Source of the DNA: Leucoraja ocellata
Taxonomy: Eukaryota
Length of the DNA stretch: 64,000 nucleotides
Reading direction: 5' to 3'
Assembly: GCA_036785375.1 (NCBI GenBank)
Contig: JAWMAR010000201.1
Coordinates: 1,178,001 to 1,242,000 of the forward strand
Numbering within the stretch: the stretch's first letter is position 1; every line of letters starts with the position of its first letter. Shown one piece after another: positions 8,042 to 63,924 of the stretch. Under the pieces are notes generated by a model, which made no database searches, was not told the origin of the DNA, and saw nothing but the letters and a program-made list of their open reading frames with translations. The position numbers and the translations under genes were made by a program.

Positions 8042-8077
8042 ATCTCGATGCTTTGGGCGAAAAATTGAGTGATACAG
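8042..8077 (+). CDS. 36-nt A micro-exon, (D)LDALGEKLSDT
   Basis: tgtctttgcatttcag|...ACAG|gttaga. Confidence 0.85.
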
Positions 8078-8523
8078 GTTAGACTACCAGAAATTAAATC
8101 TACATGAACATGGAGTATGAAATCTATCAACCCATATTCAAAGTAATAAGGTGGTCCGCAGCGATCAATTCGAGATCCTTCAAAACCAAATGTGTTCATT
8201 CTATGTCAATCAGAATTGAAATCAGCTAGTAGACACTAAAAGTGGTGCATACTATAAGCCCTATTCGCAAACACATACAAAGCAAAATTCTGGCACGAGA
8301 TATTCAGGACACGATTAATGACTACTAAGCAGGCCAACGTAGTCTTAACGTAGGCCAAATGAAACCAGTAAAACACATTTTTCTGTTCATTATAGTTATG
8401 GCAATCTGGAGTTGGGGAATTTATAATTAGATTGAGTATATGAACAGAAAGAAAGACTTATTGGTTGAAGAATTTATAAAAGTTGCTTGTGCGAAACAGC
8501 ATTTTTTTCATGTTTCTTGACAG

Positions 8524-8550
8524 AGAGGAAGCTGAAGGAAACACAATCCG
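8524..8550 (+). CDS. 27-nt B micro-exon, (E)RKLKETQS
   Basis: tgtttcttgacag|...TCCG|gtaaag. Confidence 0.85.
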
Positions 8551-8677
8551 GTAAAGCCGGGAATGAGTTAACACACAATTACTAAATAAAAAAATTGCAA
8601 CTTTGAATTTCGATGTGATTATTTTAATATATTATGATATATTTTTTACCCTATTCTCCTCACGCCCACTGCATCAG

Positions 8678-8704
8678 AGCTCTACGGGCAGTGCCAACCT
8701 GACG
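8678..8704 (+). CDS. 27-nt C micro-exon, (E)LYGQCQPD
   Basis: cactgcatcag|...GACG|gtaagc. Confidence 0.85.
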
Positions 8705-10299
8705 GTAAGCTAAAGCGAGATTTTGGCTAACAAAGTCATATTTAAATTTCACCAATGATATGCAAATGCAGTATGATGAACAGAAGGTAGAATTTCAACG
8801 AGTTTCTAAGAAATGTGTAAGCTATTTATTTGCATCAAGTAGAAAATCATTTAGTGACCGGAAATGCGGTGAAGTAGCGCGGATCTTCGGCAAGAACCAA
8901 AAAAAATAACGTTTACAGATGAAGAATTCTCATCTGTATTTGAGGACTTCAGAGTCAAATTCCAAGATACATTTATAGCGTTATGTAATACCGTCTTGTC
9001 TTCGCGCAGAATGGTCTTGGAACATTGAATATCTCAATAGCATGTGCGTGAGATCAGTTGATTAACTGGATCGAACAGTTATTTTCGCGTTATTGGTGGT
9101 TAGTTTAGAAAGTTAATATGTTGGCCATTGTCTCACAGGAAGCTGAAGTTACCTCTACTCAAAGCAGTCATGCTACTTCTTGAAACACGGGAAATTTCTT
9201 GTGAAAATAAGCTTGCCTATCGGGTGTGGCCACTACGGAGGGTTGTGCACCTCCTTTATGGCGACAGAAAGACAGTCACTGGGATTGTCATATAATTTAA
9301 TTGCAATAAATGATTTTAATGTCATTCTTGTTCAACTAGATAATGAATCCTTAGATTACCATTCCTCGTGGCATTTCTGGTAATCAGTGTTTTCACCGTG
9401 TGGGCGAGGGAAAATTCAGATTTCTAAGACTATAATACCTCCAATATCAGGATGGTTATTGGCGATTAAATGCAATTAATTTCTAGGTTCAAGGGTAATT
9501 CCCAATCATTGATTTCTTGCGGCATACAATATTCTTCGTAGACCTGGAGTAATGCACCATAGGGCACGGGGTCGATCTTTCCCCCCAGCCTAAGACATAA
9601 CCCAACAGATCCTCCTCATCTGCTGGATGTGTTGCGTCTGCCAAATAATTTCCGGTCTATAAAACGAATACGAATATAAACACTTGTAAACAGCAATTTA
9701 ATTGTTGGCTAAACTTGTTGTTATAGCATGCACCATTTACGAATGAAATGAATATATTCATCTATTTATTGCAGTAAGAATGCTGATTGATCAATTGGGA
9801 GGTAACGTTGCAAATAATGATTTACTTTATGTACCGACTGAAAATCTGACTCACATAGAACTTGTCTGCCCTCTGCCCTCTGCCCTCTGCCCCTCTCCCG
9901 CCCACATTTCACTAACGTTCAAGAGAATTGGTTAATGAGCACTATAACAGGAAAAAATGCATATACGTCATTTTTAACTGAATACGAAAACATGTCAATG
10001 TATGTTGTTTTTGGAGATACGAGCGGCTAATGCCACATGAGTTTTTAACGTACACCGCGGAATGTTATTGTGCTTCCCGGTCAGAGTTCACTTTCCTCCG
10101 ACCAACTCCCTCTTTACGCGTAAACTATTGCCGTGTATGTAGTAAACTTATTATCAGAAAGACAAACTTGATTTAAATTAACTACTTCAGCATCCGTTAA
10201 TGAATGGAAGTCTTTGCTAATTCCAAATACATTAAATAAAATGTCACGCATTTATTATTCGTAAATTAATGCTACGTATGTATGTTATTTGCTTCACAG

Positions 10300-10335
10300 A
10301 TATGATGAAAATGAAAAACGAACTGAAACAAAAAG
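10300..10335 (+). CDS. 36-nt A micro-exon, (D)MMKMKNELKQK
   Basis: ttatttgcttcacag|...AAAG|gtcagg. Confidence 0.85.
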
Positions 10336-11349
10336 GTCAGGATTGTTAAGAATTGTTTGGATATAACGGATCCAGAGTTTGACTGTGCAGAATGATAGCT
10401 TATTGATTCAAAACCGCCTAAGAGAGTGGCTTGTTTTAAGTATGTTGGCAATTCCAGTTCACGCTTTTCACCTAAAACATGGCTGACCATTTAATTTGTA
10501 TTGATCGCAATGGTTCTCTCTTTTGTCACCACACGTACACAGATTGAATACCAGGACGGAAGTACCCCATACATAACCATTTTCTTCCTTTTCCTCATAG
10601 CCTGAAGCATCCGTAAATGTAACAGTGAATATGTTTCTTTCACCTTCTGCTAATGTCCACCGCACGATCTATTTGCACTTCCCAAAAATAATGATGCCAT
10701 TATGCACCTGTATCTTATAACTTCTGAAGGCATTTCGTTAAAGGCGAACATGTTCTTCATGTCTTTCTCAAACACAGCTCAGCTGGATCCGACAAATATC
10801 TACTTCTGCACGTAATATAATTATACACAGATTTCTATTACAAATCTTATTGTCGGGTGCATGATAAAATACGTGATGGATATGCCAGTTTCTGGGGTTT
10901 CTTTATATGCATCCTCTATTATTATATACAAGCTAAGTAGGTAACATGAAGTCAAAGTCTCCCCTCAGTATTTGTGTGAAATCTTTTCATTTCTGGCAGT
11001 ATATGGAAGAGTTGGCTGGTGAAAATCCAACATCAATGCTCGACGGACATGGACGCTATTTATTCAACGATCACAGATAAATGGCAGTTGGCTTCCAAGT
11101 GAATGTAATTTGTGAAATACAGAAAAAATCGATTTTTGTTGTTCCCAGAGCAAGTAATCGATTGTCATTTCTTGGTGCTGGAGTTCTTAAATTCGGAACA
11201 CGCTTCAAGAGAAAGCAGTGCACTAATGTCAGTGAGCTTGAAGATATAGTCATTGTTCGTCAGTACTAGAAGGGATGAATGGTTGTGTGGCTCCATTAGT
11301 TACCACTCATGATTGCCCAATTGCTATTCTATTTTATACCATGTTACAG

Positions 11350-11376
11350 ATCAAAGACTTATTGAAAACAACTTAG
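11350..11376 (+). CDS. 27-nt B micro-exon, (D)QRLIENNL
   Basis: atgttacag|...TTAG|gtaaac. Confidence 0.8.
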   Translation: MKDLLKTT

Positions 11377-11999
11377 GTAAACGTTTTTGCAATGGAATCA
11401 TGTTGAATATTGTGGAATAATCGCAGAAAACTGATTGATAACAATGTACTAGACCATACGGAATCTACACTGAAGCTTCAATATAACAGGTGTGGCTGAG
11501 GTTTTATTTTAAGGACGGCTGTGCTCCCCGCACTGTGGTGCACAATACAAATCATCGCATTTCGCTTTGTCTCTGAACATAATTGGATGTGGTACCGTTT
11601 TGTCTCTCTCAATTAGAGCATCGGTTCGCTAGCGATCCAGTCGCTATTGCATTCCTCTGAATGAATCGTCCATTGGCGTCAAACAGTTAACGAAGGTGGT
11701 CGTTTCTTTTTGTGACATCGTTCTCTTAAATAATGTCGATGTATTGAGGTACTAGCGCATACTCAACATGCTGAATATACATATAGTATTCTTTCTTGAT
11801 ATATGTTTTGAAATACATTAATTGCACTGTCAGCATAGAAGCAGACGCTATCTGGGATGAGTTTCATCTGACTGTAGCGGCAGATTTTTATATCGTTCAA
11901 GAGATTACTCCCTCTAGCCATTAAGTGGAGTACATGATTAAGGAGAATGTAGTTATACGCACGTGAGCTTTTCTTCAGAGAACCTCAGAGGTTCTTCAC

Positions 12000-13140
12000 A
12001 GATAAATCTTCATAACACTGTCTATTGATTAATAAATTCTTTATTGTTGATGAAAGACAATAAGGTGTACATCCAAGCTTCTTCCGACTGTTAAACTATA
12101 ATCTTCGTCAAACTCCAGCATATCGCTTTTAAGGTTAGAAAACTACTCGTGTCTCTGTTACACTTCACATGGTCAAAGGGTATCCCTTCCTCGTGCCGGT
12201 CCAAAACTGAACTAAAAACTAAGCTTCTGCGCTAGAAACTTAGCTCCAAACACGCCCTAGAATACATCATAAATCCCACCCACATAATAATGGGCAGTCT
12301 AAAATTGAAAGACACATGCCATAATCAACGGCACACAAAACAAGCCAAATGGCCACTACATACTGGCTCCTAATTGTTCCGATGAACTCTTCCATCTTCA
12401 CTTTCTTCTTCTAGAAGCAAGCATAACTAGGTTATTGGTCTTATTAAAACAGTGGTTTTAATTTAAAGTCGTACTGTGCGCACCAAACCATTAAAATCAG
12501 GCATGTTACCCAATATTTTGTCCAAAACATAAAAGTCCAAAGCTTTGATAGCAGGAACGTCTTCCTCCATGTCCGATCAACAATGGATGTGTTGTAACAG
12601 TAATGCTGAAATGTGAAAATCCTTCACACGAATATCAGGATTTTTAGCAATAATGTTCACCATTAGGTTTGATTTAATTTATGGATCATTAACAGAGATT
12701 TCAAATCCCAGCTCAAGCTTTGGCCAATCTCTGTCAGGCTTACAGAGAGACTCTAGTTCATTGATTCAACTCTTATCGCTGTCAGTTCTCTGGAAACTTG
12801 ATCCGCAAGATGTTCTTCTGTGTTAACATATTTCAATTGTGCAGCATTAGTAACTCCCAATGCTCTTTCCATTGGCAGATTGCCTCTGTCCAAATCCAAC
12901 TCTCTGGTTTCTTTGGCTCTATCATCTAGTGGAATACTTTCACAATTGTCGCTGATCCACTTGGAAAGTGTAAATCCTCCCTTATTGCAAAGGGAAGTCA
13001 GATGTTCGACTGGTAGAATGGCTTACTGCTCCGTAGACATAGATTTTAAGCAATCATCCACGTAGAAATTATTTTTCAAAGTGGTTATTACCTCCTCTGG
13101 AATAATTTATCTACTGATAAATTAGAAATGCCGGTGATGA
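12000..13140 (-). mobile_element. Degenerate BEL/Pao LTR-retrotransposon pol fragment
   Basis: manual translation PEEVITTLKNNFYVDDCLKS...LCNKGGFTLSKWIS...LDLDRGNLPMERALGV with an internal stop; boundaries approximate. Confidence 0.8.
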
Positions 13141-15205
13141 AGCCATACAATCATGACTTCAATGAAAGTACCAGCAAGGAATCTGTAGAGATATCTATCA
13201 TCCCATTTTAAACAGCTCATTCATTCTTGAAAGAAATGTTCTAATTACGAGATGTGTTTAATTTATTAATACATGTAGGCTTCTATGTATCTTTATCCCT
13301 ACTGTAATTTCGGGGAATATCTTTGATACTTGATGCCCGATTCATTTGCGAATGCTGCTCATGAAAAGAGCATTTCTCAACCATATATAAATAGCAAACA
13401 CGTGTATGAGAAGGTGCACGTTTAGTTTACTTTTTCCCTTTTGTTGAACTGGCTTTTCTTCCACAGATACTGCTTGATCTGCCTAGATCTTACAGTAGTT
13501 TATCGTTTGCAGCAGTTTCCATAATCTATAGTTCTGTTATTCTCCAGATCAACTATACTGTCGGAAATGCCATAGATATCTCCATAGCCTTTCCAACATA
13601 ACATACCAATTGACTCAGAAGCAAAAATCTGCCTCCGATCTACGTTAAACCCTTTTCCCCGCGGAATCATAAATGATGCTCTCTCTCCTTTTCGCCACCT
13701 TTACCATTGTACGCCGAAGAAGGAGCGTGCAGACTGGAACTGTGAGGTGCCACAGCAATAGCCATTCGATTATTCTTCCTGGTCTGACTCTAAGATGATG
13801 TATATTATATTTTCCTACTCAATTATTCTGGTAATAATCATGCGATTTCTACCTGCACTATTACATATGCATTGTGCTTTTATGAAATGATTATTGCCAG
13901 AAATAATCTGTACGTTTCCCATATTTCTCTTTCACTTCTTTATCCCCTTGGTATTCGCATTATGCTATTTTACACGTAATCTGCTTCACAACCCTGATAA
14001 TATTTTGCTTTGTTTTACCGGAGTATGCCACTGAGAACTTAGACACATTATTGTTTGCTCACTCATTTTAACCTCCTGTACAACCAATGAAATATTTGAA
14101 GCCCTTTGCTCCCAGCCTTGTGTATCCGTCCATGGATATGCAGTAAAGTGCAGACCTTCTGTCTGTGAAGTAGATGAACTGTACTATATCGATGTATATT
14201 GCAGGTTTATTTTAAGCAACACATATCAACAAAGAATTGTTGTTTCTTTTGCAGTAATCGATACACTGAAAATAGATCTAGATATTGCAAGTAAGGGTCC
14301 TTTAAATATATACTCTCGAACGGAGAGCATAAATGCGACAGCATGTACATTTCCACTGCTTTACAACTGGACGGATATGATCTGGTACCTGCAGAAAAGA
14401 AAACGGAGTCACAGATTATAATAACATCCTGAATTGCAGGAGAAATCTTGACGGACAAATTCATGTCGCATTTCTTTGCATACGATTGGGATTAAGCACC
14501 TAGTCGATATTGCTTGTTTTTATTGAACGCTTTTATTCGAGCTAATGCACAACCAATGTTATTTTATATGCTATGTTTGCTTAACTAATAATGACCATTC
14601 CAACCACGTATATTGAACATTGACATTTCTTCCGAACACAATGTCAAAAAAATGCATTGAAATTTTAGCTTGGAGGAGGAAAGGAATAACAAATAATAAT
14701 CCGCAGACACGGCCAAAATCTAAATCCTTATCACTCCATATCATTATTTTACGGAGCATACATCTCAGCACAATAAATCAAGTAAAACCATAAGCTGTGT
14801 CTTCCAAGCAACTGAAGATATATCTTTTAAAAATAAGACTATTCCCGTACGCAAGCGGGATAATTAAATTAGTTAATGCAAATTTTCGTCAATCGGATAT
14901 CTTCACTTCATCTGCAGATTGGCTTCATGGAAAAGAATAGAAGGATGTTGAACATTGCGTGTTTCTATAACTGACTGTCGACCAAAGGATTGGAGTGTGT
15001 GAGGGGGCAGGTTTCCAACGCAGACATGTACGTCGTTTTAACTTTTGGGGGCTTTTCAGAACAACAAAATTTGAACTTCCAATGAAACCAGATTTCACAA
15101 TTATTAATGACGTCGAAAGTTAGTGAATTGCGTGTAAACCGGTACTTTGAAGCAAGTGTACATTTCAGTTGTGCTACGATTTGTTTTTTTTTTAATGCTT
15201 CTCAG

Positions 15206-15232
15206 AAAGGCAACAAGGACAATGTGACGAAG
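15206..15232 (+). CDS. 27-nt C micro-exon with GC donor, (E)RQQGQCDE
   Basis: tttttttaatgcttctcag|...GAAG|gcaagt. Confidence 0.75.
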
Positions 15233-15504
15233 GCAAGTATGAAAAATCAGTTCGTATTCTTCGGCCAAAATATATGAGATAAAATGTATTGGAGTTGCTC
15301 CTCGCGGCAGTCTCTGACATCGATGCATATTCAATTTACTCCTTAAAACTACCTTATGCTACTGTAAAACAATGGGTTGTTCATGCAAAATACCAATTCC
15401 TAAATTCTTCTGACACTGTATCTGCACACGAGTATGCAAAAATGTTCTAATATTACATATCCCGCGCTCTCTAACTACCAAACAATTGAAGACTGCGTAA
15501 GGAA

Positions 15505-15815
15505 CGCAATGGCGGCGCATTGATAAAATAACTAAAATATATCCAGCGCCAGGGACACGCGTTCGATCCTGACTTAGGGTGGTGCCTGTTCAGAGTCTAT
15601 ACGTTCTCTCTATGACCACGTAGGTGTCATCCGGTTGCTCCCGTTTTTACCCATAATCCAAATTGTACGGTTTTATAGATTGATTGGCTTTGGCAAAATT
15701 GTAAATGGTCCCTCGTGCGTAGGATAGTGTCAGTGTACGGGTGATGGCTGTTCTGCGCGGACTCATTGGGCCGAACGGCGGGTTTTCGCGCTATTTCTCC
15801 AAAGTGTACAATCTA
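15505..15815 (+). mobile_element. tRNA-derived V-SINE (HE1-like), diverged
   Basis: B-box-like gttcgatcctgac, central V-like domain (tacgttctctctatgaccacgtagg...ccggttgctcccgtttt), LINE-like tail gggccgaacggc. Confidence 0.75.
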
Positions 15816-16604
15816 AAGAATCAATTCAACAAACAAGTATACTTTTGCGTTTAATTATTTTAAATGAATTCAAAATAAACTCATACGTTGTCAACGAGCA
15901 TGCTGTATGCTGAATCTCACAGCTTATTCATTCACTATAAACACAATCTAATTTTCACTCAACAATCCAAATAAGAGTGAAATGTAATGATACACGCCAT
16001 TTGGAATTAATGCAAATACTTTGTTACACCAGTGATGCGACGCGGACAGGCAGTGTAGCTCATTCCCCTGTTGTTCTCATTATTGCCCCAATTAAAACTG
16101 GTGGGACTGCAGATAATTTCATCACGTTCGCGACGCCTATTGTTGGAGCAGCCTATTGTCCTCATTATAAGGTTTTGGTACTAAAAGGAATTATTAGAGG
16201 AAAAAGATAGCGTGGTGTCTGATGAGCAACATCGGTGAACGGTTATGACGGTTTGTGCAATCGGGATGAAGTAAGGCGATTATATATCTAAACTCTAGTT
16301 TAGAATCCTCTGCCGAGGGGATAAGTCTGTGTTTGCTTGTGTTCGTTTGTTCCGGTGAAGGCATTTTGCACACGGCAACCAGCCAACAGTCTCTTGTCTT
16401 TTTGTTTTTGTTTTCACTTTTAATTTCATGTTTTTGTGTATCTTATCGTATCTTATCTCATGTTATCGTATCTTATCGTATCGTATGAAGTGAATTAAGA
16501 ATTACTGTTGTGCACGCCCCATGGGTCGTTATACAAGGCCTCATGGGCAAAAGTGATCATAATATTGTGGAATTCTGCATTAGGATGGAGAAGTGTCTCG
16601 GTTA

Positions 16605-16730
16605 ATACAGAGACTAGGGACCTGAACCTGAATAAAGGAGACATTGAAGGTATGAAACTGGAATTGGCTAGGATAGTCTGGCAGATTATACTTAAGGGTT
16701 GACAGTGGGGATGCAATGGCAAATATTTCA
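16605..16730 (+). mobile_element. CR1 ORF2 fragment
   Basis: LNLNKGDIEGMKLELARIVWQ. Confidence 0.6.
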
Positions 16731-17112
16731 TACATTCTCTAAATCACACAGGGAAATGGCCGAACCTATTCACCCTCGTTGCATTCCTTTGAAGTTCAGC
16801 TTGGAAGAAATACAATCACCATAGCTATTACCCACAAAATTATAGAACAAGAGGACCTCAGCCAGACCTAAACCTGGAAACTGCCAAGAATCTCGGGATT
16901 TAATGCGTGCACCAAATGTCCTCTTCAACCAATTTCCCATATAATGCCATGCCTTGTTATTTGATTCCAAAAGGCGTTATATTTAATACTATGACACTAT
17001 CCCGTAAAATGCCGACGATAACAGGAATCGGCAATATAACAACACGCCTTGCAGCTCAGTAATAAACCGAACATCCAGCCACCGACACCTGTAACGTTTT
17101 CTCTATTTTTAG

Positions 17113-17148
17113 ATTTGGTTAATTTGAAACATACACTTCAAGATTCAG
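17113..17148 (+). CDS. 36-nt A micro-exon, (D)LVNLKHTLQDS
   Basis: ttttctctatttttag|...TCAG|gtgagt. Confidence 0.9.
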
Positions 17149-19519: not shown

Positions 19520-19546
19520 AGATGAAGTTCCAACTATGTCAAGAAG
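19520..19546 (+). CDS. 27-nt B micro-exon, (E)MKFQLCQE
   Basis: gttgtttccatcag|...GAAG|gtaggt. Confidence 0.88.
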
Positions 19547-19633
19547 GTAGGTTGTGCATTTGTTCTATGCTTTGTTTTTGAGCCTGTATGTTTTTGCCGT
19601 GAACCTTTAACACTTCGTTGCTTATGTTAATAG

Positions 19634-19660
19634 GACTTGAAGATCAGCTTCATCGCAAAG
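19634..19660 (+). CDS. 27-nt C micro-exon, (G)LEDQLHRK
   Basis: cttatgttaatag|...AAAG|gtaatc. Confidence 0.85.
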
Positions 19661-22012: not shown

Positions 22013-22039
22013 ATGCCGAACTATTTGCGAAAAACATAG
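22013..22039 (+). CDS. 27-nt micro-exon, (D)AELFAKNI
   Basis: ttttttttcatacgcag|...ATAG|gtaacg. Confidence 0.8.
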   Translation: MPNYLRKT

Positions 22040-24524: not shown

Positions 24525-24560
24525 AAGTGGAACAACTAAGAAATGATCTTAAGGATACAG
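24525..24560 (+). CDS. 36-nt A micro-exon, (E)VEQLRNDLKDT
   Basis: attattttttaaag|...ACAG|gtatgg. Confidence 0.88.
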
Positions 24561-25888: not shown

Positions 25889-25915
25889 AACAAAAAGGAA
25901 TCTGCAAAGCCGAAG
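25889..25915 (+). CDS. 27-nt C micro-exon, (E)QKGICKAE
   Basis: actatttatttag|...GAAG|gtgagg. Confidence 0.85.
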
Positions 25916-27290: not shown

Positions 27291-27599
27291 CCCACCTGCC
27301 CGTGTTTGGCAAATATCCATGCGAACATATCCCGTGGATTGTGATTGCGACTATTGTAAAGTCATCCTCGCGGTGGTTAATGGCAGTTTATGCATTATCT
27401 TTACTTTAGCGACTGTATCATTGCCGTGTGGCAGAAAAAAATAATTCCACAAATATGAAGATAAATACATATCCACAGAATGCTTCAGTGATGGTATAAA
27501 AGACAATGTTTCACTCCTCCATTTAATCCTCTATTTAATCGCTCCATTGGCAGAAAGTCAGATTATTGAAACATCAGCAGGTACATTTTTAAGTTATTA

Positions 27600-29829: not shown

Positions 29830-29865
29830 ACATTGAAGAACTGACCTATGCTTTAAAAAAAGCAG
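29830..29865 (+). CDS. 36-nt A micro-exon, (D)IEELTYALKKA
   Basis: ttgttttttcgtcatag|...GCAG|gtgggg. Confidence 0.85.
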
Positions 29866-30496: not shown

Positions 30497-30523
30497 GAGA
30501 TCTTTTAAAACATTGTCGGGAAG
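30497..30523 (+). CDS. 27-nt B micro-exon, (G)DLLKHCRE
   Basis: ggtttgcag|...GAAG|gtaagt. Confidence 0.88.
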
Positions 30524-30751: not shown

Positions 30752-30778
30752 TTCTACGCAATTTCAGCTTGACCAATG
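30752..30778 (+). CDS. 27-nt C micro-exon, (V)LRNFSLTN
   Basis: aataacag|...AATG|gtaaat; weak pyrimidine tract but correct length and position. Confidence 0.55.
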
Positions 30779-31616: not shown

Positions 31617-31652
31617 AAATGAAAAAGATGAGGGCGGCTCTAAAGAATACAG
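31617..31652 (+). CDS. 36-nt A micro-exon, (E)MKKMRAALKNT
   Basis: gcacgtttcag|...ACAG|gtaact. Confidence 0.88.
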
Positions 31653-34389: not shown

Positions 34390-34416
34390 AGCGAAATGGA
34401 CAGTCTGTAGCTAATG
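34390..34416 (+). CDS. 27-nt C micro-exon, (E)RNGQSVAN
   Basis: cccttttcaacacag|...AATG|gtgagt. Confidence 0.85.
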
Positions 34417-36170: not shown

Positions 36171-36216
<46 letters not shown>

Positions 36217-37309: not shown

Positions 37310-37345
37310 ATATCAATAAATTGAAGGACATTCTCAGAGATTTAG
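37310..37345 (+). CDS. 36-nt A micro-exon, (D)INKLKDILRDL
   Basis: ttcctctttgcag|...TTAG|gtgagt. Confidence 0.9.
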
Positions 37346-39495: not shown

Positions 39496-39516
39496 AAGAA
39501 AGATTGCGCCAAGAAG
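39496..39516 (+). CDS. 21-nt B micro-exon, (E)ERLRQE
   Basis: ttttttgctcttcag|...GAAG|gtaagt. Confidence 0.9.
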
Positions 39517-39613: not shown

Positions 39614-39640
39614 AGCTGAAGAATGTATGCAAAAGCAAAG
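39614..39640 (+). CDS. 27-nt C micro-exon, (E)LKNVCKSK
   Basis: tcatcgttttcag|...AAAG|gttagg. Confidence 0.85.
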
Positions 39641-44203: not shown

Positions 44204-44230
44204 CAATAACCAAAGAGAACAAGAATAATG
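44204..44230 (+). CDS. 27-nt micro-exon, (A)ITKENKNN
   Basis: tttttcttttcatag|...AATG|gtaacc. Confidence 0.75.
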
Positions 44231-47129: not shown

Positions 47130-47165
47130 AGATACGCAAACTTAATGACGCTCTCGGGTATACAG
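47130..47165 (+). CDS. 36-nt A micro-exon, (E)IRKLNDALGYT
   Basis: gcctttcacttccag|...ACAG|gtatga. Confidence 0.9.
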
Positions 47166-49084: not shown

Positions 49085-49111
49085 AGGAAAGACTACGCCA
49101 ATATAAACGGG
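49085..49111 (+). CDS. 27-nt B micro-exon, (E)ERLRQYKR
   Basis: tgtgcattttaaag|...CGGG|gtaagg. Confidence 0.85.
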
Positions 49112-49258: not shown

Positions 49259-49285
49259 AGCTCGATGACTGCGAGAACAACGACG
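49259..49285 (+). CDS. 27-nt C micro-exon, (E)LDDCENND
   Basis: ttatttcccgcag|...GACG|gtaaga. Confidence 0.88.
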
Positions 49286-50689: not shown

Positions 50690-50716
50690 CAAGATCAATT
50701 ATTGCAAAGGAAAAGG
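50690..50716 (+). CDS. 27-nt micro-exon, (A)RSIIAKEK
   Basis: cattactttacag|...AAGG|gtaaat. Confidence 0.65.
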
Positions 50717-51969: not shown

Positions 51970-52005
51970 AAATACTCAGACTCAGAAACGTTCTGGAAGA
52001 AAACG
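51970..52005 (+). CDS. 36-nt A micro-exon, (E)ILRLRNVLEEN
   Basis: tttctgctcttgtag|...AACG|gtgagg. Confidence 0.9.
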
Positions 52006-53162: not shown

Positions 53163-53189
53163 ACCTGCGATTACTTGCACGAGAAAACG
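53163..53189 (+). CDS. 27-nt B micro-exon, (D)LRLLAREN
   Basis: ttcctcctatgtttacag|...AACG|gtaaaa. Confidence 0.85.
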
Positions 53190-53338: not shown

Positions 53339-53362
53339 AGAGCAGTAACGCAGACAATATTG
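53339..53362 (+). CDS. 24-nt C micro-exon, (E)SSNADNI
   Basis: aaatacag|...ATTG|gtaaat; weak tract, 149 nt after B. Confidence 0.6.
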
Positions 53363-53619: not shown

Positions 53620-55330
53620 GTGCGCAGGCACTGCCCCTGTGCGCGCTGGGATAAAGTTCACTCGCCCCAGGCAGTGGTCCAAGTACGGCACAGGCCATAT
53701 AGGGGCCGCCGAGACACTAGAGACACGCTGCGTATATGTACATGCGATCGATACGGGAATCACCCCCCTCAGACCGCCACGAAAACGCGTTGGAATCAGG
53801 ATGGAGACTCCGCTACACGTCAACCAACTCAAAGGCATTAATCAAACCTCTCAACTTCTTCGCTATTGCAGGGGCACACTGAGTACCAGAGTGACCACGC
53901 AACTCAAGAGTGCAATTGAAATCCTCCGAAAGGAAGACAAACTCTGCAATTTATATTGCTCAGCAGAACAGTCACCTCCTAACAGTCACGCCTGCATCGT
54001 GCCGGTTTTGGTGGCGAACAAGTTAATGAAATGAAACGGCCCCCCATCCAGGCTCATGGCCAAATAGAGTAAACGGCCTGACACATCTTCCTGCACCTTC
54101 AGGATCTCTGGCTGGATTGTCGGGGCCAAAAGGAAGGCCCCCCATTCGAATTTGTACTGAGGTGGCTCATATAGACCCACTCCCACTCCAGGAGTCAGTA
54201 GGGTTCATCACTTACAATTGCATGCATCTCTTGCAGAAAGCTCACTGCATACTTCCCTTCTCTGAGGACTGATAGATGGTGAAATCTATGAAGCCCCCCC
54301 CCCCCCCCCCCCTTCCGCAATTTATATTTAGGCCAGCTACTGTGATCTCCGTGTTGAAGGCACATTATGGTATTTTCCTCAAGGGAGTGGGGCCCTTCTT
54401 TCTTAGAAGCTTCAAAAAGTCCCCGAACTGACGGTTCCCAAACTCGAGAAGACCACTATCCTTTACTGCGAAGAATAGCATCAAGTATCTGGATAAGTCC
54501 CGACAGGTCCAGACGCCTTTTGACAGCTAACTGGACTTTACCCCTACTGCCGTTAGATATTTTCAGAAACTACCAAATCTCTCAGATATCGGCCCCTGGA
54601 GATACAGCACATGAATCCAGGCATTCAGCCAACCTATTGACAACCGAAGCAACATCCTCCCCTTCACTACACTCAACGTCTTCGTCTGAGTTCGGACGGC
54701 TGCAGCTGGCTGCCAGCTCGCCCGTCCCACTGTGCAAGGTAGCTACACCACGCTGCCCCTCCTCCGACATGATCCCACCCCCGATCTCAGTGTCGAGGGA
54801 GGGTACCGATGCATCTGACAACGATGAGCCAGCCGGCCAGTGAATGGCCAGGCTCCTGCACTCTCCCACCGCTCCCTACAACTGGGTTTGGGAAAGAAAA
54901 ACCAAGAGGCGTCCGCAGGGCCCGCGTGCGCAAGCACTCCCGGAATCCGATTGAGGGGCACGTCACGAAGCAGCCCCGTCTCTCTCTACACCCAGGGTAC
55001 CCACTCCAACAGCATCACCCAGAGAGTCTCCAACCTCCTCCTCCAGGATAGTAACCTCACTCGGGCACACCGAAGGAGCCGTGTTTCTGGAGTATCCCCT
55101 AATTCCTCAGCCGATGGGGCAGCACATCCCTCAGCTACTCTTTTAACTCTAATGAGGAGCACAGGCTGGGAAACCACACCTCCACTCGATACTCCCCATT
55201 CGAGTTGTTCGTGCTCGTTCTCCACCCCAGGGGACACATTTCCAGGGGAGGTAACCCTAACAACTGGTGAGATAACATCCTCAGAAGGCTCCTGAAATGA
55301 AGGGACATCCTATGGCCCAGAGGACACTAG
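53620..55330 (-). mobile_element. Tx1-clade L1 LINE fragment (probable ORF1 C-terminal region plus ORF2 endonuclease)
   Basis: FLLAPTIQPEILKVQEDVSGRLLYL...FHFINLFA and RVSSVSAAPIWPVPYLDH resemble APE endonuclease motifs; frameshifted. Confidence 0.7.
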
Positions 55331-55409
55331 TCCTAGGCCAGCAATAGACAATAGGCAATCGCACTAGATAGACAAATCATATTTAACGTGCGCGCACCTT
55401 ACGTTCTAG

Positions 55410-55445
55410 ATGTGACAGAATTACGAACATCTCTGCAAATATCAG
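55410..55445 (+). CDS. 36-nt A micro-exon, (D)VTELRTSLQIS
   Basis: ccttacgttctag|...TCAG|gtacgt; an internal cag gives an in-frame 27-nt alternative. Confidence 0.85.
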
Positions 55446-55819
55446 GTACGTAAGAAGTCGTTAACGTTTGAAATATGGCATTGGGTGCGCCAAACAAATA
55501 TTGTGTACATCAGTCCCATTGTTTTGGATTTAATGGGCATATTTCTTGAGAACACTCACTTCGCTGCTGAGTTTTTGAAAGCCGAAACATATAGGTATAA
55601 TATCTGATAACATACCCTCCAATGAAATGTAAGAAAATGTTGGGTATACCATGCAGAGATGTGCCAAGAGTGAAGTCAAATTTGATGCTTGCCAATACTA
55701 CTGCCATATTTTGTGTTTTAAATTAAATCCAAACATGCTACCATTAAATGTTGGCTTAATATTGATAGTTCCTGTTTACAATTGCAAGATAAATAAATAA
55801 ATACAAATTGTGATAATAA

Positions 55820-56740
55820 CTCCCTCAACTGCCTCCTCGGGCAGATCACTCTACATACACAACGTTATCGAATGTAAAAGTTGAATAATTCTACTCTCAT
55901 CTAAAATCGGTGTCCTCTGGTTCGCCTTTCCCTACACTGGGTGTATTTGTATATTGTGGTTGTGTGTATTTACCCAATCTATTCCCCTCATGTCCTTATG
56001 CAACTCTATAGGACCACCCCCCTCGTCCTCTAATGTTCCACCAAATAAAGTCCTAGACGGCTCACTTCTCCATATAACGCACGCTCTCGATTCCTGGTAA
56101 TATCCAGGTAAATCTGCTTTGCACCTATTCCAGCTTAACACCATCTTTCCGACAGCATGATAAGCAATAAGGAGCACAATACTTCTAATGTGACCTCACC
56201 AATGTTCCTTACAACTGCAATATCAATTTCCAATTACTGTACGCATACCAGCTCGATGAACATAAGCCATTTTGACTACCCTATCTTTCAAGGACCAGTG
56301 CATCTGCATTCCTCGATTCCCTGCTCGACAAGACTCCCCAGAACACGTCAATTCAATGTTAAGTTCGTGCCCTGACTTTACTTTCGAAAATCTAACAGCA
56401 CGCACATCCGTATTACATTCAATTAACCGGTCCCATGTCCATCTGCCCAACTGATCAAGATCCTGCTGCAGATTTTGATTACTATCTACGCTATGTAGGA
56501 TGCCACTCCCTTTCTTGTGCACAGCAAACTTACTATTCCCCATCCAAATTGTTGATATAAACCACACATAGCCAAGAGGCCAGCACTGATCCCTGAGGCA
56601 CAGCGCTAGTCACAGGCTTTCAGTCTGAAAATAACCTTCCACCATCAACCTCTGCTTTCTTCCATGAGCCAAACCAGTCGGCCAGCTCTTCCTGCATCCC
56701 TTGCGATCTAACCTCCCAGAGCGACCTCCCAAGCGAAAGT
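55820..56740 (-). mobile_element. Old CR1 RT / C-terminal fragment
   Basis: SKFA...QNLQQDLDQLGRWTWDRLIECN; gtgcctcagggatcagtgctgg (VPQGSVL) on -. Confidence 0.75.
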
Positions 56741-56977
56741 TATCAATTTCTGAAGCACATAATATTTCGTGTTTATCGTTTAATTTCATTTAGAGCGTCA
56801 CAGTTGCGACATATTAGGATTATTGCCATTCACAATGGTCCACTCACGTTCGACAACTTTGACAATGCCATAAAATCACCTTTCCTTATTTGGGGATTAC
56901 AAACGTTCGTACCGTTGACATTGTACTTGGAAACAAATGACGATACGTTACTTGCAAAATGTCATTGCGATTTTCAG

Positions 56978-57004
56978 AAGAGAAGCTGAAGCGCTGTCTG
57001 GAAG
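56978..57004 (+). CDS. 27-nt B micro-exon, (E)EKLKRCLE
   Basis: gcgattttcag|...GAAG|gtatgt. Confidence 0.9.
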
Positions 57005-57018
57005 GTATGTCTTGAAGA

Positions 57019-57400
57019 TCAAAACAATTTCGTATGTTTGTTTTGCGAGGTTGAAAAATTGTAAAAAACCGCGCGTGCGCAGATCGATCTCCTCGCCTGC
57101 CAGTCAGAGGCGCGCGGATTAGAGAGATAGGAGGGAGGTAGGGAAGGGAGAGGATTTATGGAGGAAGGGAGTGACTGAGGGTAGGGGAAAGGTGAGGGAG
57201 AGAGAGGTGAGGGAGGCATTGGGGAGGGGAGGAGGAGAGTGGAAAGAAGAGGGAGGGTGAAGAGGAGGGGGAGAGTGCTAGGAATGAGGGCAAATGAGGT
57301 GCGGCGGTGAAGTTAAGGGCCATGGGTGAGTGATGGAATATTGCGTTGGGGGTCCAAGCCTACTGTGTGACAGGGACTCAACGGGTCCCACTTAGTCTAG
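57019..57400 (+). mobile_element. Putative short non-autonomous Helitron
   Basis: 3' end GGGAC-tcaacgg-GTCCC hairpin then acttagtCTAG|T; GA-rich interior; 5' A|TC boundary tentative. Confidence 0.6.
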
Positions 57401-57504
57401 TGTTACCCTTTTACTTTGTCAAACTTTGCGTATATTTTAAGTGACCGCGCTTATTTGTTCCTTTTTTATTAATTGTTTTATGCAATTATTATTGTTCTTA
57501 TTAG

Positions 57505-57546
57505 AGTCAAGTTTTAAGCAGTCTGAGCAAGATAACGATCTCTGGG
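57505..57546 (+). CDS. 42-nt C-position micro-exon, (E)SSFKQSEQDNDLW
   Basis: attgttcttattag|...TGGG|gtaaaa. Confidence 0.65.
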
Positions 57547-58724
57547 GTAAAATCTGTCCATCTTATCAACTGTATTTATGCCACAAGCCGCGTCGTTTTT
57601 GAACCTATAGCATATTTTGTATCTGTTGAACCAAGAGAATAATTTACTTAAATCTGCCAATAAACATGTTATGTTGTTCTTTCTCATTAAAATAACTTGT
57701 ACTTTTGAGTTATCTACATTGACAACAAATTGGCAGCGAATGACTTACCAAACTTGACAAATACATCTCTCATTACCAGCACATCTCTCATTACCCTCAT
57801 AATTTCCAGCTTCGTTTTCTGTCTATAACTGCATCTGCTATGCAAGGTCAGTACAGACAATAACTTATATTGCGGCATGACACGCATCTTATATTAGAGC
57901 TTCATTCAATATTTTCCAGATTAGTTGGCACATCGAATCACTTCTATTCATTTCTACTTAACATGTGAACGTCCCATCCTCTGCGTATCAATCTGAATAT
58001 TATAGCCTCAACTGTAATCAGTCTGAATATTTACACACTCAATAATGTCCATAGGCTTTGTTCATTAATGAGGTATAATGGAAACTACGAGCACCACAAG
58101 TGAAGTGCTATGAGCAAGCATGCTTCATCTGTACGGATAATCTCTTATGATAGTTTGTGTATTGCTATCTATTATTCAAAACATATATTTTTGTTTACTC
58201 TCTTCCATTGTAATTTTTCTGTCATACAATGCACAATGCATGATACAGAATCCATTGGATATTCTTAGTCCGGTTTAAACAGAATTGTAAAAACGCGCTC
58301 TGATGAAACGTCCTCTCAAGGCCCCCCTCGCTATGCCGACCAATCTGTCTATAACTGTCCCGAATGAGACTCGTATGACTATGTACAATTTCTACGCGCC
58401 TCTTTAACTTGTAGCCCTCTGTAAGGTTACTGCTCAGCCACCTACGTTCCAAAACACCTTACTCAATCGAATCTCTCCTTATAACAGCGACCCTCAATTC
58501 TTGAAAGAACCGTATCGAATCTTTTGAGCAGTTTCCCTCTCACTACGACTCCATGACTTGGCGAGTCAAAAGTATGCAAAATATCTCAAAACTCTATCGA
58601 CATATTTATGAATTAAGTAATAAAAAGATCCTTAATTACAAAACCTTTAAGGAGCCAAATGCCTGAACAACAAATATTATTATAACTATTTTTAGAACAG
58701 GGAATGTTGTCTTGTTTTATATAG

Positions 58725-58751
58725 AAATCAAACAAAGAAGATGTAAGAGAG
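58725..58751 (+). CDS. 27-nt B micro-exon, (E)IKQRRCKR
   Basis: cttgttttatatag|...AGAG|gtgagt. Confidence 0.88.
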
Positions 58752-58852
58752 GTGAGTGTACACATCGTTGATGTTAATTCAAAACATTGTACCATCCCAT
58801 TATGACGGAAAATCCGATTTATTTTGGGTATTTTACAATTTTATATGTATAG

Positions 58853-58879
58853 AATTAAAGGAGGGCCCACGTGGAGAAG
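58853..58879 (+). CDS. 27-nt C micro-exon, (E)LKEGPRGE
   Basis: ttttatatgtatag|...GAAG|gtaaga. Confidence 0.88.
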
Positions 58880-60612
58880 GTAAGATTGCGCGTTATTTAT
58901 TCATATCTTTAGTCTCTCCGAGCCAGTCAGAAAATGGGAGCATGATGGCCATCTATTACTGACATCGAAAAGACTTGAACGCTGCAGTTCTGAAAATGTA
59001 CTGCTTGAATTGCATTAATTAGGATGTCGCTATATTTAGATCCATCGTTAGACGCAAGCAAAAGAGTAAGATGAACGTACATATTTAAAAAAAAACCGTA
59101 CATATTCCAAACATTCACCTTTTCCGCAAATTGCCTTTGCCCCGAGAGAGCGACCAGCGCTTTTCAGAGGCGGGCCGCACTACATGGCGTGTAGAGAAGC
59201 GAAGTTGGACAGGTTTCCGAAGCAGCAATCCAGCTTCCACATCTATCATTCGATGGAAACACTGTTGTATCCATTGCAGGACATGAGCAGTTTTAGAAGT
59301 CTTATTTATTTCTTATTGTTGCTTTCTATTGATGCATTCCATCTCTTGAAATGAGAAAAAATCGTTGAAAATCCTTCACCTTTTAACTATAAATGGCAGG
59401 TGGTAGGAATAGCTACGGGGTATTTGGCTGTCCGTAATTATGTGCCTTTCAAATCAATCTTAGCTGATGACTATGATTCCAGTGGTTATCTCTTGCTTGT
59501 AATCTCTATGGACCCACAGCGGTTGATACATTTTCTTTATCTCAGTTCCTAGAAATACCAATATAATTGTAAACAAAATGCCTGTTACGAGAAGAAAATT
59601 CTGCGGAACAATGCTTTAAGGACACTCAATGTTTTGTGCTATGATTCATTACACATTTTGATTTCGGTTCATGATTTAAAAAAAAATCATAATGTAAAGG
59701 TGTGAACATTAACCTGATATTAATTTGATGTTTTAAAATATCTATTTCACTGATGTCCTTAGCACTGCAATTGGCGTTGCTCCTGCGTTGCGAGGAAACT
59801 TAACAAAACTTAACAAAGCATATTCCAGAATTATGTTCAAATACCAAGTAAGAATTAGCACCCTGCTGGAAGAAACACTGTACTGTCAGCTCAATCTAGC
59901 GCTATTATCCTTATTTTACATCAGACAAACTCAGCATATCCAAAACCAACGATTGGGATGTTATGAACATTCTTCTTCTTTCCACAGCGAATGCTGCTGA
60001 TGATAATATAATTATTGACTGTCAATTTCTACATGGGAATCTATTTGGTGTCACTACATTATAGATGCGCCGTGAGTTCATCGATATATCAGTGAATTAT
60101 CTAAGTGATATTAGAAACCGCTATTAATACAATGCAAACAAAGTTTGATTGGCATTGGTGTTGTTATTGTTGGTGTAATTATTGCTGCTGTTATTGTTAA
60201 TTTTTGTTATTGGTCCACAATTATTACGCAAATTAACGGAGGACAGGCCGTGCGCTATTTTTTTGTCATTGTAGTTTTTAAATAATTATTGTGTTTATTA
60301 TTGTTATCATCACAACCATCCTTATTATTGATATCGTTGCTGTTGTTGTTGTCACCATATGTTATGAATATTTCTCTTCTACAATCAAAGCTCAAATATG
60401 ATTGAGAAATATTCTAAATATTGTTACATCCGGCCATAGCAATCAACGTATTGCAGGTGCACTGATCATCAAAATTGCAATGCACCAGGAATTTTTAAGT
60501 ACGGACATTTAACAACCATGTCTTTATTAATAAACAGCAGTTGCATTTGTGAGCAAAATAACGACAATGCATGACTAATAGTGAAACATCAATTATTCAT
60601 TTATTTCCGAAG

Positions 60613-60639
60613 AAAATAAACTCAGGCGCCTTCCGAAAG
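60613..60639 (+). CDS. 27-nt B micro-exon, (E)NKLRRLPK
   Basis: tttatttccgaag|...AAAG|gtagac. Confidence 0.82.
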
Positions 60640-60760
60640 GTAGACATTTACTGATTTTACTTAATATTTGGTCAATTAGAAACATTTATGTGCGCTGCAT
60701 ATATCACTGAATAATCACATGTTTAAGTTCAAATTTGTACTCTGTCTGTATTTAAACTAG

Positions 60761-60787
60761 ACCCCAGGGACAAGACTGCTGACAGTG
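60761..60787 (+). CDS. 27-nt C micro-exon, (D)PRDKTADS
   Basis: tctgtatttaaactag|...AGTG|gtaagt. Confidence 0.85.
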
Positions 60788-61993
60788 GTAAGTATACAAT
60801 TACGCTCAGGTTTATCTTTTCCTCTCTTGAACCGCGATTTGGACGTGTTTTATTTGAAATACGTGAGCAAATCTATGATCAAATATAGACCAAGGTAAAG
60901 GAAACATTGCATAAGTTGTGAAGATGCTCGGAACCTGAAAGTCAACAGTATATTTAATACATAGAGATGTTCTTAGTTGGCGATATCTGACCAGAATTGT
61001 GTGAGGCGACAGCCAAAGTAGATAAGGATTTAATTTATTCTCTCAAATTCTATATCGGAAATACGCGATGTCGAACTCAAATGGAGATTCTAGCTAAGTT
61101 GATGTATTTCGATGATTTTGTAATTGTCTTCAGTGATGGTCTATGAAAGCAGTTAGTATTGTCGTAACTGCTCACATACAAAGCCCATTCGGCAAATTAC
61201 GAGTGCATATTGCCAGTCCATCATTTGTGGTCTGTTCACTGATATATACGTCTTCGTTGCTGTGGAAGAGATTATCCGGTCAATATTTGTGAAACATGTG
61301 CATCATTACGCGATCGCGGTGAAAATACCTCCTTTTACTGATATAGTACTTCAGGCTAATGTGCTCCTGTATTGCTCTTCGCTGTTTATCTATGTGCATT
61401 CCGTGAGTATTCAAATGGCAACATCATCACCTCTCATGATATTGGGTGACGTGCAGGATGATTTGCATGTCGTGGAATGACAGTGCTTGTATTGCCCTCA
61501 TTCACCATGATAATATCCTATGTAGTTTTAGTCTATCAATGTTACCAGAGCGAATCATAGGGACACATTTTAGATTGCGAGCTATCTAATAAAACGAGAA
61601 AATACTATTCACGAATGGTATCACTCCAATTAAAAAAAAAAAACAGCACGTATAGGGAGCGAAGAATATCAGAATGAAGAATGTAACGTCTTCTGCATTT
61701 TGTCGTAACAATTCCAGCGAAAAGGCCCAATTACCCCCCAACGAAATAGCTTGGAATATCTGGCCACTACCCCGGTGTATGGAAGATTTGTTCACGTCTA
61801 ATAGCAGAGGGAAATACGCTGTTCTTGTGTCTCGTGTTATGTACTTCCAACCTTCTGTTTCTCCCGTCCGACCGGATCGACAAAGTTCCTTGGTTATTTT
61901 CTTTGTTTTTCCATGGTAGCGAACTATAGATGGGGTAAATCGAGGGATGTGATGGATTGGGTTATATCTTCAAATCTCTGCATTATTTTGCAG

Positions 61994-62028
61994 ATTTGGG
62001 AAGAGCTGTGTCCAAACAAAGGACACAG
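61994..62028 (+). pseudogene. Dead A-type micro-exon, (D)LGRAVSKQ..DT; 35 nt with no donor, abutting a CR1 insertion
   Basis: cattattttgcag| acceptor; ends GACACAG like other A exons but is followed by ctctt and then CR1 sequence. Confidence 0.55.
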
Positions 62029-62029
62029 C

Positions 62030-63068
62030 TCTTGAGGTAGTAATGGGGCATTTGGATAGCAGTTAAAGGATTAGTCCAAGTCAGCATTGATTTATGAAAG
62101 GACAATCATGCTTGACTAATCTTCTGGAAGTTTTTGAGGATGTGACAAGTAAAACGGGTGAAGGGGAGCCAGTGGATGTAGTGCATCTAGACTTTCAGAA
62201 AGCCTTTGATAAGGTCCCGCACGGGAGACTGGTGACTAATTCCCGCTTCCAAATTATTAATATATATAGTTGCGGCCCCAACACTCGCCACTGCCTGCCA
62301 TTCTGAAAAGGACCCGTTCACTTCTACTCTTTGGTTCCGGTCTGCCAACCAATTTTCTACCCATGTCAACATCCTACCCCAATACCATGTGCTCTAATTT
62401 TAGTCACCAGTCTTCCGTGCGGGACCTAAAGACTTTCTGAAAGTATAGATACACTACATCCACTGGCACCACTTCATCCATTTTACTTGTCACATCCTCA
62501 AAATATTTCAGAGGATTAGTCAAGCATGATTTCCCTTTCATAAATCCATGTTGACTTGGACTAATCCTTTACTACTATCCAAATGCCCCATTATTACCTC
62601 TATAATAATTGACTCCAGCATCTTTCCCACCACCGAAGACAGGCTAATTGGTCTGTAATTCCCCGTTTTCTCTCTCGCTCCTTTCTTGTAAAGTGGGATA
62701 ACACTAGCTATCCTCCAATCCACAGGAACTGACCCTGAATCTATTGAACATTCGAAAATTACCACCAATATGTCCACTATTTCTAGAGCCACCTCCCTGA
62801 GGACCGTGGGATGCATACCTTCAGGTCCAGGGGATTTATCATCCTTCGGTCCCATTAGCGTACCCAATACTATTTCTCGCCTAATGAAAATTTATTTGTT
62901 CCTCTACCCCCTTAGATCCCCTGTCCTCCAGTACATCTGGGAGATTGTTTGAGTCTTCCTTAGTGAAGACAGATCCGAAGTACCTATTCAACTCTTCTTC
63001 CATTTCCTTGTTGCCCATAATAATTTCACCTGTGTCTGCCTTCAAGGGACCCACATTTGACTTTGCGG
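62030..63068. mobile_element. CR1 RT fragment (-) with an inverted duplicate (+) at its left end
   Basis: KGQSCLTNLLEVFEDVT...VDVVHLDFQKAFDKVPH on +; DKSPGPEGMHP...DWRIASVIPLYKKG..GNYRPISL on -. Confidence 0.9.
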
Positions 63069-63271
63069 GTCTGAAATGGCTATATCCGTGCAATATCACT
63101 CCATGGGTCAATGTGGACCGTATAACTTATACAGGGCGAAAATGGTTTGCTCAGTTTCTTGTCAGTTAAACATATGACGTCATCTCACCTTTTGTTCATT
63201 GATCTGCGCATTGTAAGAACATCTGAAAGGCCTGTAAATCAGTGTTAATGTATCCATTAATTTTTTTGCAG

Positions 63272-63307
63272 CCGTTGCGAAATTAATGCAAGAACTGGAA
63301 GACACAG
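63272..63307 (+). CDS. 36-nt A micro-exon, (A)VAKLMQELEDT
   Basis: tttttttgcag|...ACAG|gtgacg. Confidence 0.88.
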
Positions 63308-63773
63308 GTGACGTGTTTAGTTTTGATAGGCACGACTGATTCACCTTGGCTCACAGCCCCCCTACCCCCCCCCCCCCACATTTTCCGTTTAGCTAAACCC
63401 CTCATCGATGTGTAACCTCAGAGATGTTCACATATGCATTGTTTTAATTAGCATTGACGATGGAAAACAACTATCTTAATTTACAAAAGTTAATTATGCG
63501 TATACTTCTCATGTAGGGAACAGACATATTACACCAAAACAACTACAATTAAATGCATTTGTTGTTAATTTGAATTGTGCTGTTCATCAACTGAATAGAA
63601 ATAATTGGTGATTATCGATCAGAATCATTGAGTGAATATTTCCCAATTATTAGTCACTTGTTAAGATTATTATATGATTGAACATAGTTCGGTATATATG
63701 AGGTATTTTCAAATGCAAACAATATTTCTTATTTTTTATGTATCATTGATCATTATATTTTTATTATTTGTAG

Positions 63774-63799
63774 AAGGGCGCTAAAGCAGTGTGCGAAAG
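63774..63799 (+). pseudogene. 26-nt B-type micro-exon with 1-nt deletion (repairs to E-G-x-LKQCAK)
   Basis: ttattatttgtag|AAGGGCGCTAAAGCAGTGTGCGAAAG|gtcaat; in-frame TAA as written; 98 nt before the C exon. Confidence 0.65.
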
Positions 63800-63897
63800 G
63801 TCAATTTGCGTTTTACATTTTTGCGTCTTGTGGAATGCCTTTCATTTCGCAATTCCTGTGCTTATGACCCAATAATCCTCCTATATTCCGCACACAG

Positions 63898-63924
63898 AAC
63901 TGAATACCCATACGCGTGATGAAG
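63898..63924 (+). CDS. 27-nt C micro-exon, (E)LNTHTRDE
   Basis: ctatattccgcacacag|...GAAG|gtgagg. Confidence 0.85.

Follow-up and report, generated by a model that had tools for sequence, protein, structure and literature searches.

A phase-1 microexon array in Leucoraja ocellata

The window analysed here, a stretch of 64,000 nucleotides from the skate Leucoraja ocellata (contig JAWMAR010000201.1, here C201, positions 1178001-1242000), lies wholly inside one plus-strand array of very small exons. We examined 1.26 Mb of this contig in a genome of 3.44 Gb, and all coordinates on C201 are given relative to the window and extended beyond it. Its limits are at about -34k and 254k, that is, ~34 kb upstream and ~190 kb downstream of the window, and it comprises ~139 exons in ~290 kb, encoding ~1,400 aa. 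We consider it probable that the window is a slice of this phase-1 microexon array, that the array encodes a very long predicted coiled-coil rod, to which a C-terminal B30.2 (PRY-SPRY) exon, missing because of an assembly gap, would likely be spliced, and that it belongs to a family of cartilaginous fish.

The microexons of the window are real. All 21 exon positions listed in a first-pass annotation proved to be segments of the size given (27 or 36 nt), flanked by AG and GT or GC, ending in G and open in phase 1; one of them, the 27-nt exon at 30752, has a poor acceptor (score -2.9). A splice-site scan of the window for candidates of 15-60 nt returned 32 of 27 nt and 19 of 36 nt among 163 on the plus strand, against 1 and 6 among 154 when the identical scan was run on the minus strand, so that the length excess is far above chance. 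When candidates on the plus strand were defined by splice scores alone (32 of 27 nt and 17 of 36 nt), phase-1 stops were found in 1/32 and 0/17, i.e. 1/49 overall, whereas the other two phases had 14 and 18 stops in the 27-nt and 14 and 9 in the 36-nt candidates (totals of 28 and 27 of 49). Candidates of other lengths had no phase bias (stops in 10, 8 and 7 of 22). Over the whole array, only 4 of 143 splice-defined candidates contain a phase-1 stop. Exons of 27 and 36 nt are also known from collagen genes, where they encode Gly-X-Y repeats; the translations here are E/K/L-rich heptads without that pattern, with 0.06-0.31 Gly per exon after the first residue.

The resulting catalogue of the window holds 43 exons and 423 aa. 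It is based on 39 exons from an automatic scan trained outside the window, which gave a single opposite-strand hit; one weak 39-nt call was removed, and the exons at 8678, 9775, 30752, 53339 and 60761 were added by hand from a relaxed scan, other candidates of which, such as 2899 and 55231, were excluded. Since N stretches lie inside the modules starting at 24525 and 37310, exon counts there are lower bounds. In-frame alternative acceptors are present 3-6 nt downstream at 1844, 7298/7301, 39499 and 56981, and their use would shorten the exons by 1-2 aa.

Downstream, the array stops at a gap of 200 N (255054-255253; L020:1054-1253). A second array of ~63 exons, on the minus strand, extends from 408k until it meets the same gap; a third begins at 428k, head-to-head with the second, and reaches 937k with ~221 exons in 510 kb. 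The last exon of the third array, a phase-1 terminal exon at 938208, encodes a B30.2 domain (Pfam SPRY, E=4.9e-15).

The predicted rod and its B30.2 relatives

We retain the first-pass letters for the exons, A being the 36-nt exon, B and C the two 27-nt exons that may follow it, and add D for a further one; an A exon with a single 27-nt exon is called a dyad. Leu, Ile, Val, Met or Phe (LIVMF) occupy positions 2, 5 and 9 of the 12-aa unit in 87, 74 and 76% of 164 A exons, and position 4 of the 9-aa unit in 81% of 79 dyad 27-nt exons. Because the hydrophobic residues stand at these positions, 36+27 nt make up exactly three heptads, and an a-position recurs every seven residues across the 21-aa dyad. 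Cys and Pro are commoner in the products of B and C exons than in those of the remaining classes. For a homolog from Narcine, a single-sequence AlphaFold model consists of long helices with two breaks at Gly/Asp/Pro-containing stretches, the block confidence (predicted local distance difference test, pLDDT) being ~53-85 over the helical part. With a helical rise of ~0.15 nm per residue, 1,400-2,240 aa would span ~210-335 nm.

The five closest B30.2 exons in the genome, among at least 150 matches scored, all stand behind 27/36-nt arrays: one each on C3233 and C3305 (97.6% alike), two on C253, and one on C3092 that is a near copy of one on C253, i.e. three loci and two near-identical copies. At least some 145 further B30.2 matches were scored, many of them clustered (contigs including C367, C813, C622, C666 and C591), and the same genome holds separate clusters of matches to the immunoglobulin (Ig) profile PF22705. 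A profile built from four of the array-associated B30.2 domains retrieved proteins from Narcine, Scyliorhinus, Leucoraja, Cetorhinus, Hemiscyllium and Callorhinchus among the best 150 of 3,874 hits, on which the family range rests, so that members outside cartilaginous fish are possible; a homolog search with a single B30.2 at longer lengths gave no match. In a midpoint-rooted tree of 59 rows (four own domains, named hits and best-scoring unnamed hits, with 15 isoform or near-duplicate ids omitted), a side of 13 rows separates with 100/100 support from the named BTN and TRIM rows, and the named rows on that side come from rays, sharks and a chimaera. All seven subfamily proteins scanned have SPRY, one with a sub-threshold PRY as well, and no other Pfam domain.

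The longest database relative is Callorhinchus XP_042192744.1 (1,697 aa, 'nuclear-pore anchor-like'), which consists of a coil and a B30.2 of the same group and can be divided into the same 12/9-aa units (score 121 vs 28±8 in shuffles, maximum 43). For this protein and three shorter models, unit segmentation scored above all 30 shuffles each. Shorter shark and ray models ('A33-like', 'TRIM39/58/69-like', 'BTN3A1-like') share the B30.2 group, and all four proteins tested, XP_042192744.1 included, have the same units. XP_042192744.1 and these models belong to the family; their names are automatic, and they look like partial models. The exons of the window, for their part, fit profiles trained on the third array alone (13 A and 28 27-nt exons, both P=0.0002). 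In each of Narcine, Scyliorhinus and Callorhinchus, what distinguishes the database isoforms is an internal 9-aa block that begins with D or A, to which Narcine adds a 6-aa block. Such database isoform models usually rest on RNA-seq, and the differences may be taken as an indirect sign of splicing and block skipping. Two sequencing runs presumed to be RNA, when compared with two of the B30.2 exons, covered repeats alone, which speaks neither for nor against expression. A description of the family was not found in the literature searched, which took in few subscription journals.

A terminal B30.2, directly observed in the third array and in other copies, is likely for the window's array as well. 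Several observations weigh against the interpretation as a whole. The window's array is not seen joined to a B30.2 exon, the only one in the 1.26 Mb being that of the third array, and the unplaced contigs C3233 and C3305, which carry a B30.2-type end, have no overlap with the gap flanks. In none of the arrays could a first coding exon be identified. Hydrophobic residues are sparse at the d positions (22 and 4% LIVMF at dyad positions 12 and 19), and the coil may therefore be loose, and the AlphaFold model is of low confidence in its B30.2 part (mean pLDDT 51). Exon order aligns weakly between arrays, that of the first and second scoring 104 against a null of 64±12 (maximum 97) and that of the first and third falling within the null. 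Of the eight named subfamily representatives in the database, seven have only 175-451 aa, which weighs on a single giant transcript, and the function proposed below is drawn by analogy.

As to the gap, searches with its flanks gave no second contig. Converging arrays at C253:1253223 likewise end at a scaffold gap without a B30.2 seen, as on C201, and this suggests that the 3′ ends of arrays are repeatedly lost from the assembly. Elsewhere on C253 (1.07-1.13 Mb; L146, L147, L161-L164), an inverted copy of an array start, 96% identical, meets its counterpart at a 200-N gap. These are likely two haplotypes scaffolded back to back, and the orientation at gaps in the assembly is therefore unsure.

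The size of most database models could also mean that the array, although real, is divided into several shorter transcription units with internal promoters, of which only the last 200-450 aa are joined to B30.2, and that no giant protein is made. We regard this as the most serious alternative, yet improbable, since one model does reach 1,697 aa, the phase-1 frame is kept over 290 and 510 kb, and gene predictors often miss microexons.

The layout of heptad repeats followed by B30.2 is that of a butyrophilin tail (in the available text of PMC5938342 and PMC4046983), the best PDB matches are to BTN3A1, and three database models start with a short hydrophobic stretch. One could thus suppose a membrane receptor of the butyrophilin or BG type, whose Ig and transmembrane exons have been missed and whose giant cytoplasmic tail is the array. 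Pfam searches for Ig, RING and B-box domains, however, returned no hit in 119 open reading frames (ORFs) of at least 75 aa around three array starts, nor in 106 of at least 80 aa around three more, and none of the 74 genome matches to PF22705 (C2-set_3) is on C201 or C253. Transmembrane scans near array starts found a few hydrophobic stretches, none common to copies and several resembling polypyrimidine tracts. Head-to-head pairs moreover leave only 20-30 kb for such exons, and we find the receptor unlikely. A shared first exon was not found by ATG-donor scans, transmembrane scans, CpG windows or a masked comparison of six upstream regions, nor a first exon by tblastn with the 1,697-aa Callorhinchus homolog. 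Unconfirmed leads are an unmasked CpG-rich patch 1.3 kb before the third array (L057:3001-3500) and an ATG at the start of that array's first exon. Head-to-head pairs 20-30 kb apart occur at two loci, C201 (L055-L057) and C253:1.82-1.85 Mb (L166-L169), and a shared promoter is possible. Sampling of C253 found more arrays between 0.74 and 1.93 Mb, among them the head-to-head pair just named.

Repeat units, duplication history and neighbouring genes

The first-pass annotation had grouped the exons into a fixed three-exon A-B-C module (36+27+27 nt, 30 aa) with five complete triplets. Whereas the exons themselves stand, this grouping does not hold in the form proposed (Table 1). The triplet 10300/11350/15206 spans an extra 36-nt exon at 14255 (acceptor 7.8, donor 8.5), those starting at 8042, 17113 and 47130 have a further 27-nt exon (9775, 22013 and 50690) before the next 36-nt exon, the variant triplet at 37310 is likewise extended by 44204, and the last of the five, 29830/30497/30752, hangs on the weak acceptor of its third exon. 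Successive 36-nt exons in the window are separated by 1, 3, 1, 1, 3, 2, 2, 1, 3, 3, 2 and 5 short exons, so that exactly two are present in three of the twelve intervals (mean of shuffles 1.8, P=0.27). Exon order is non-random in that no 36-nt exons are adjacent (P=0.006) and their spacing is evener than in shuffles (P=0.009), but the strict triplet is not above chance. Nor are B and C clearly separable as classes. Balanced accuracy was 0.59 when labels were given by position only (P=0.24; 16 vs 16) and a borderline 0.74 within A-B-C contexts (n=10; P=0.054; 9 vs 10), although both are distinct from the other 27-nt classes, D and dyad exons (0.77-0.86, P=0.001).

Table 1. Exon units of the window (all on the plus strand; short exons are 27 nt unless stated)
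Unit	36-nt exon (A)	Short exons	Remarks
Two phase-1 exons		1838-1864; 5047-5073	End of a module begun upstream of the window
Dyad	6148-6183	7295-7321	21 aa
A-B-C-D	8042-8077	8524-8550; 8678-8704; 9775-9801	127-nt intron before 8678; 9775 absent from the first-pass triplet
Dyad	10300-10335	11350-11376
Dyad	14255-14290	15206-15232	A absent from the first-pass triplets; 15206 exon with GC donor
A-B-C-D	17113-17148	19520-19546; 19634-19660; 22013-22039	87-nt intron before 19634
A + two	24525-24560	25889-25915; 27554-27580	N stretch within; count is a lower bound
A + two	29830-29865	30497-30523; 30752-30778	30752 doubtful, weak acceptor
Dyad	31617-31652	34390-34416
A-B-C-D	37310-37345	39496-39516 (21 nt); 39614-39640; 44204-44230	97-nt intron before 39614; N stretch within
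A-B-C-D	47130-47165	49085-49111; 49259-49285; 50690-50716	147-nt intron before 49259
A + two	51970-52005	53163-53189; 53339-53362 (24 nt)	149-nt intron before 53339
A + five	55410-55445	56978-57004; 58725-58751; 58853-58879; 60613-60639; 60761-60787	58725/58853 and 60613/60761 are pairs
A + one	63272-63307	63898-63924	Array runs on past the window

Over the three arrays, 22, 83, 25, 19 and 12 of 161 intervals contain 0, 1, 2, 3 and 4 or more short exons, respectively, in an automatic catalogue with ~5-8% opposite-strand hits, in which missed exons inflate the zero class. The commonest unit is accordingly 36+27 nt, i.e. 21 aa and three heptads (83/161), whereas a triad of A, a second exon, a short intron and a 27-nt exon follows only 10 of 164 36-nt exons. 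A-B-C triads with a B-C intron of 87-186 nt are found in the 5′ parts of all three arrays. The base unit is the 36+27 dyad, the variant A-B-C(-D) being met chiefly in those 5′ parts, and the three-exon module itself is simply a local variant; within the window, the long unit most often has four exons (39 aa). That a fixed 36+27+27 cassette was the unit of duplication could be argued from the 5′ triads with their short B-C intron and from the borderline separation of B and C. It is nevertheless very unlikely, given the scarcity of intervals with two short exons (not above chance in the window, 25/161 overall), the rarity of triads behind A exons, and recent duplications that mainly involve exon pairs.

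With regard to intron lengths, the early description was accurate. The 13 introns after 36-nt exons measure 446-2737 nt, and 8 of the 16 between short exons measure 87-228 nt, the other eight being of 1.1-4.6 kb; the short-intron pair is real. The mutual dissimilarity of the introns was also borne out, since self-comparison of the window after repeat masking (15.4% covered) leaves a single intronic match of 78 nt at 74% identity. The third array, in contrast, contains 40 self-matches, each 500 nt or longer and covering exons as well as introns (~66-82% identity in 25 of them), at 782-814k, where exons alternate mostly as pairs. Here exon pairs, together with their introns, have recently been duplicated in tandem. 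Because the window is without intron similarity of the kind kept there, its units are older, as had been proposed; growth by duplication of multi-exon cassettes likewise stands, but not with a fixed three-exon, 30-aa cassette. Runs of near-identical recent 36+27 dyads also occur at C253:1.878-1.901 Mb and on C3092, with slightly different spacing between both copies.

Among recent duplicates of the third array, the proportions of nonsynonymous (pN) and synonymous (pS) differences are 0.19 vs 0.10 (9 exons) and 0.41 vs 0.40 (11 exons), in pairs that are non-independent. Since pN is not below pS among these copies, frame, length and hydrophobic stripe look more constrained than the sequence itself. 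Selection on exon length had been suggested at first sight and, together with selection on frame, is supported, phase-1 frames being almost free of stops. That the window's array is a decaying, truncated duplicate whose protein is no longer made would agree with these ratios and with the lack of a start or end exon found for it, but is the least credible explanation of all, because 139 of 143 array candidates are stop-free in phase 1 although the window's introns have no mutual similarity left.

Directly upstream of the array, ~128 to 46 kb upstream of the window (L027-L036), a NACHT-LRR gene, presumably NLRC3-like and giving a weak FISNA hit, is present in three recent tandem copies (long blocks ~89-99% alike). 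Fusion of the array with the nearest copy was considered and rejected: that copy has a terminal exon of its own, ~49.5 kb before the window starts, and the homology that the three copies share stops at ~46.4 kb upstream. Downstream of the third array are two long single-ORF voltage-gated potassium-channel genes (L112:5943-7475, plus strand; L117:1516-3060, minus strand) and, in L120, a fragment without Pfam hit that we take to be importin-9-like. An open frame of 1,517 aa on the minus strand inside the second array (L051) is probably a retroelement. As for linkage to the major histocompatibility complex, 0 of 10 class I matches were on C201, C253 or C3233 in this fragmented assembly.

Relation to known systems and biological meaning

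The closest parallel is with the BG genes of chicken. As far as described in the available text of PMC5938342 and PMC4046983, BG genes and a soluble zipper protein have a long coiled-coil tail from many small phase-1 exons, variable in number between genes, with expansion by unequal crossing-over and alternative splicing. The tail exons of BG are split-codon (phase-1) exons of 21 nt, one heptad each, 13-38 per gene, preceded by Ig-V and transmembrane exons, and no B30.2 is described in those texts (PMC5938342, PMC4046983). Here, the exons are of 36 and 27 nt, with three heptads per pair and up to 140-220 per array over 300-500 kb; 21-nt exons account for only 3 of 139 in the window's array and 4 of 221 in the third; and relatives have B30.2, with no Ig or transmembrane exon found. 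Butyrophilins, in the text available, have IgV, IgC, a transmembrane segment, a few heptads and then B30.2 (PMC4046983, PMC12841164). The succession of heptads and B30.2 is shared with the third array and other copies, and the best PDB match is BTN3A1 (E=1.8e-26), whereas the B30.2 domain of the present family lies on a separate, well-supported side of the tree and no IgV or IgC exon was found in the 225 ORFs, among the PF22705 matches on C201 and C253, or in the seven subfamily proteins. The RING and B-box of TRIM (RBCC) proteins are likewise without Pfam hit upstream of the arrays and in those seven proteins, despite TRIM-like names. The family resembles a BG tail fused to B30.2, yet we assign it to none of BG, butyrophilin or TRIM, because the Ig searches (for the first two) and the RING and B-box searches (for TRIM) were negative. 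With the micro-exon genes (MEGs) of Schistosoma, whose symmetric exons of up to 36 nt can be skipped in frame and which are described, in the part of PMC8293314 available, as schistosome-restricted and host-exposed, only the idea of symmetric microexons is shared; no homology is implied, and the present family encodes a heptad rod with B30.2.

Since all introns are in phase 1, any exon or block could be duplicated, lost or skipped in frame, which would explain the variable 1-5 short exons per unit. The Cys- and Pro-richer B and C exons may act as hinges along the rod. As no Ig, transmembrane, RING or B-box exon was found, the product would be a cytosolic protein. By pairing as a parallel coiled coil, the rod could serve as a spacer, at least 200-300 nm long, that brings about oligomerisation and presents two ligand-binding B30.2 domains, as the coils of TRIM proteins and butyrophilins do at a far smaller scale.

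More tentatively, we suggest that sharks, rays and chimaeras may possess an undescribed multigene family of giant cytosolic rods tipped with B30.2 (>2,000 aa, >300 nm), made from 140-220 or more skippable phase-1 microexons over 0.3-0.5 Mb, in which combinatorial skipping and fast amino-acid change would tune length and surface, i.e. a BG-like variable system without receptor ectodomain. Should splicing follow the prediction, few vertebrate genes known to us would carry more exons than these, which would be present in several copies per genome and common to rays, sharks and chimaeras. Most of the database models examined appear to cover no more than the final 200-450 aa of them, under TRIM or butyrophilin names that mislead. 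The heptad-microexon design of BG and butyrophilin genes would thereby reach several times its known extent, and the family would offer a clean system in which to study how genes grow when symmetric exons are duplicated and how hundreds of microexons are spliced.

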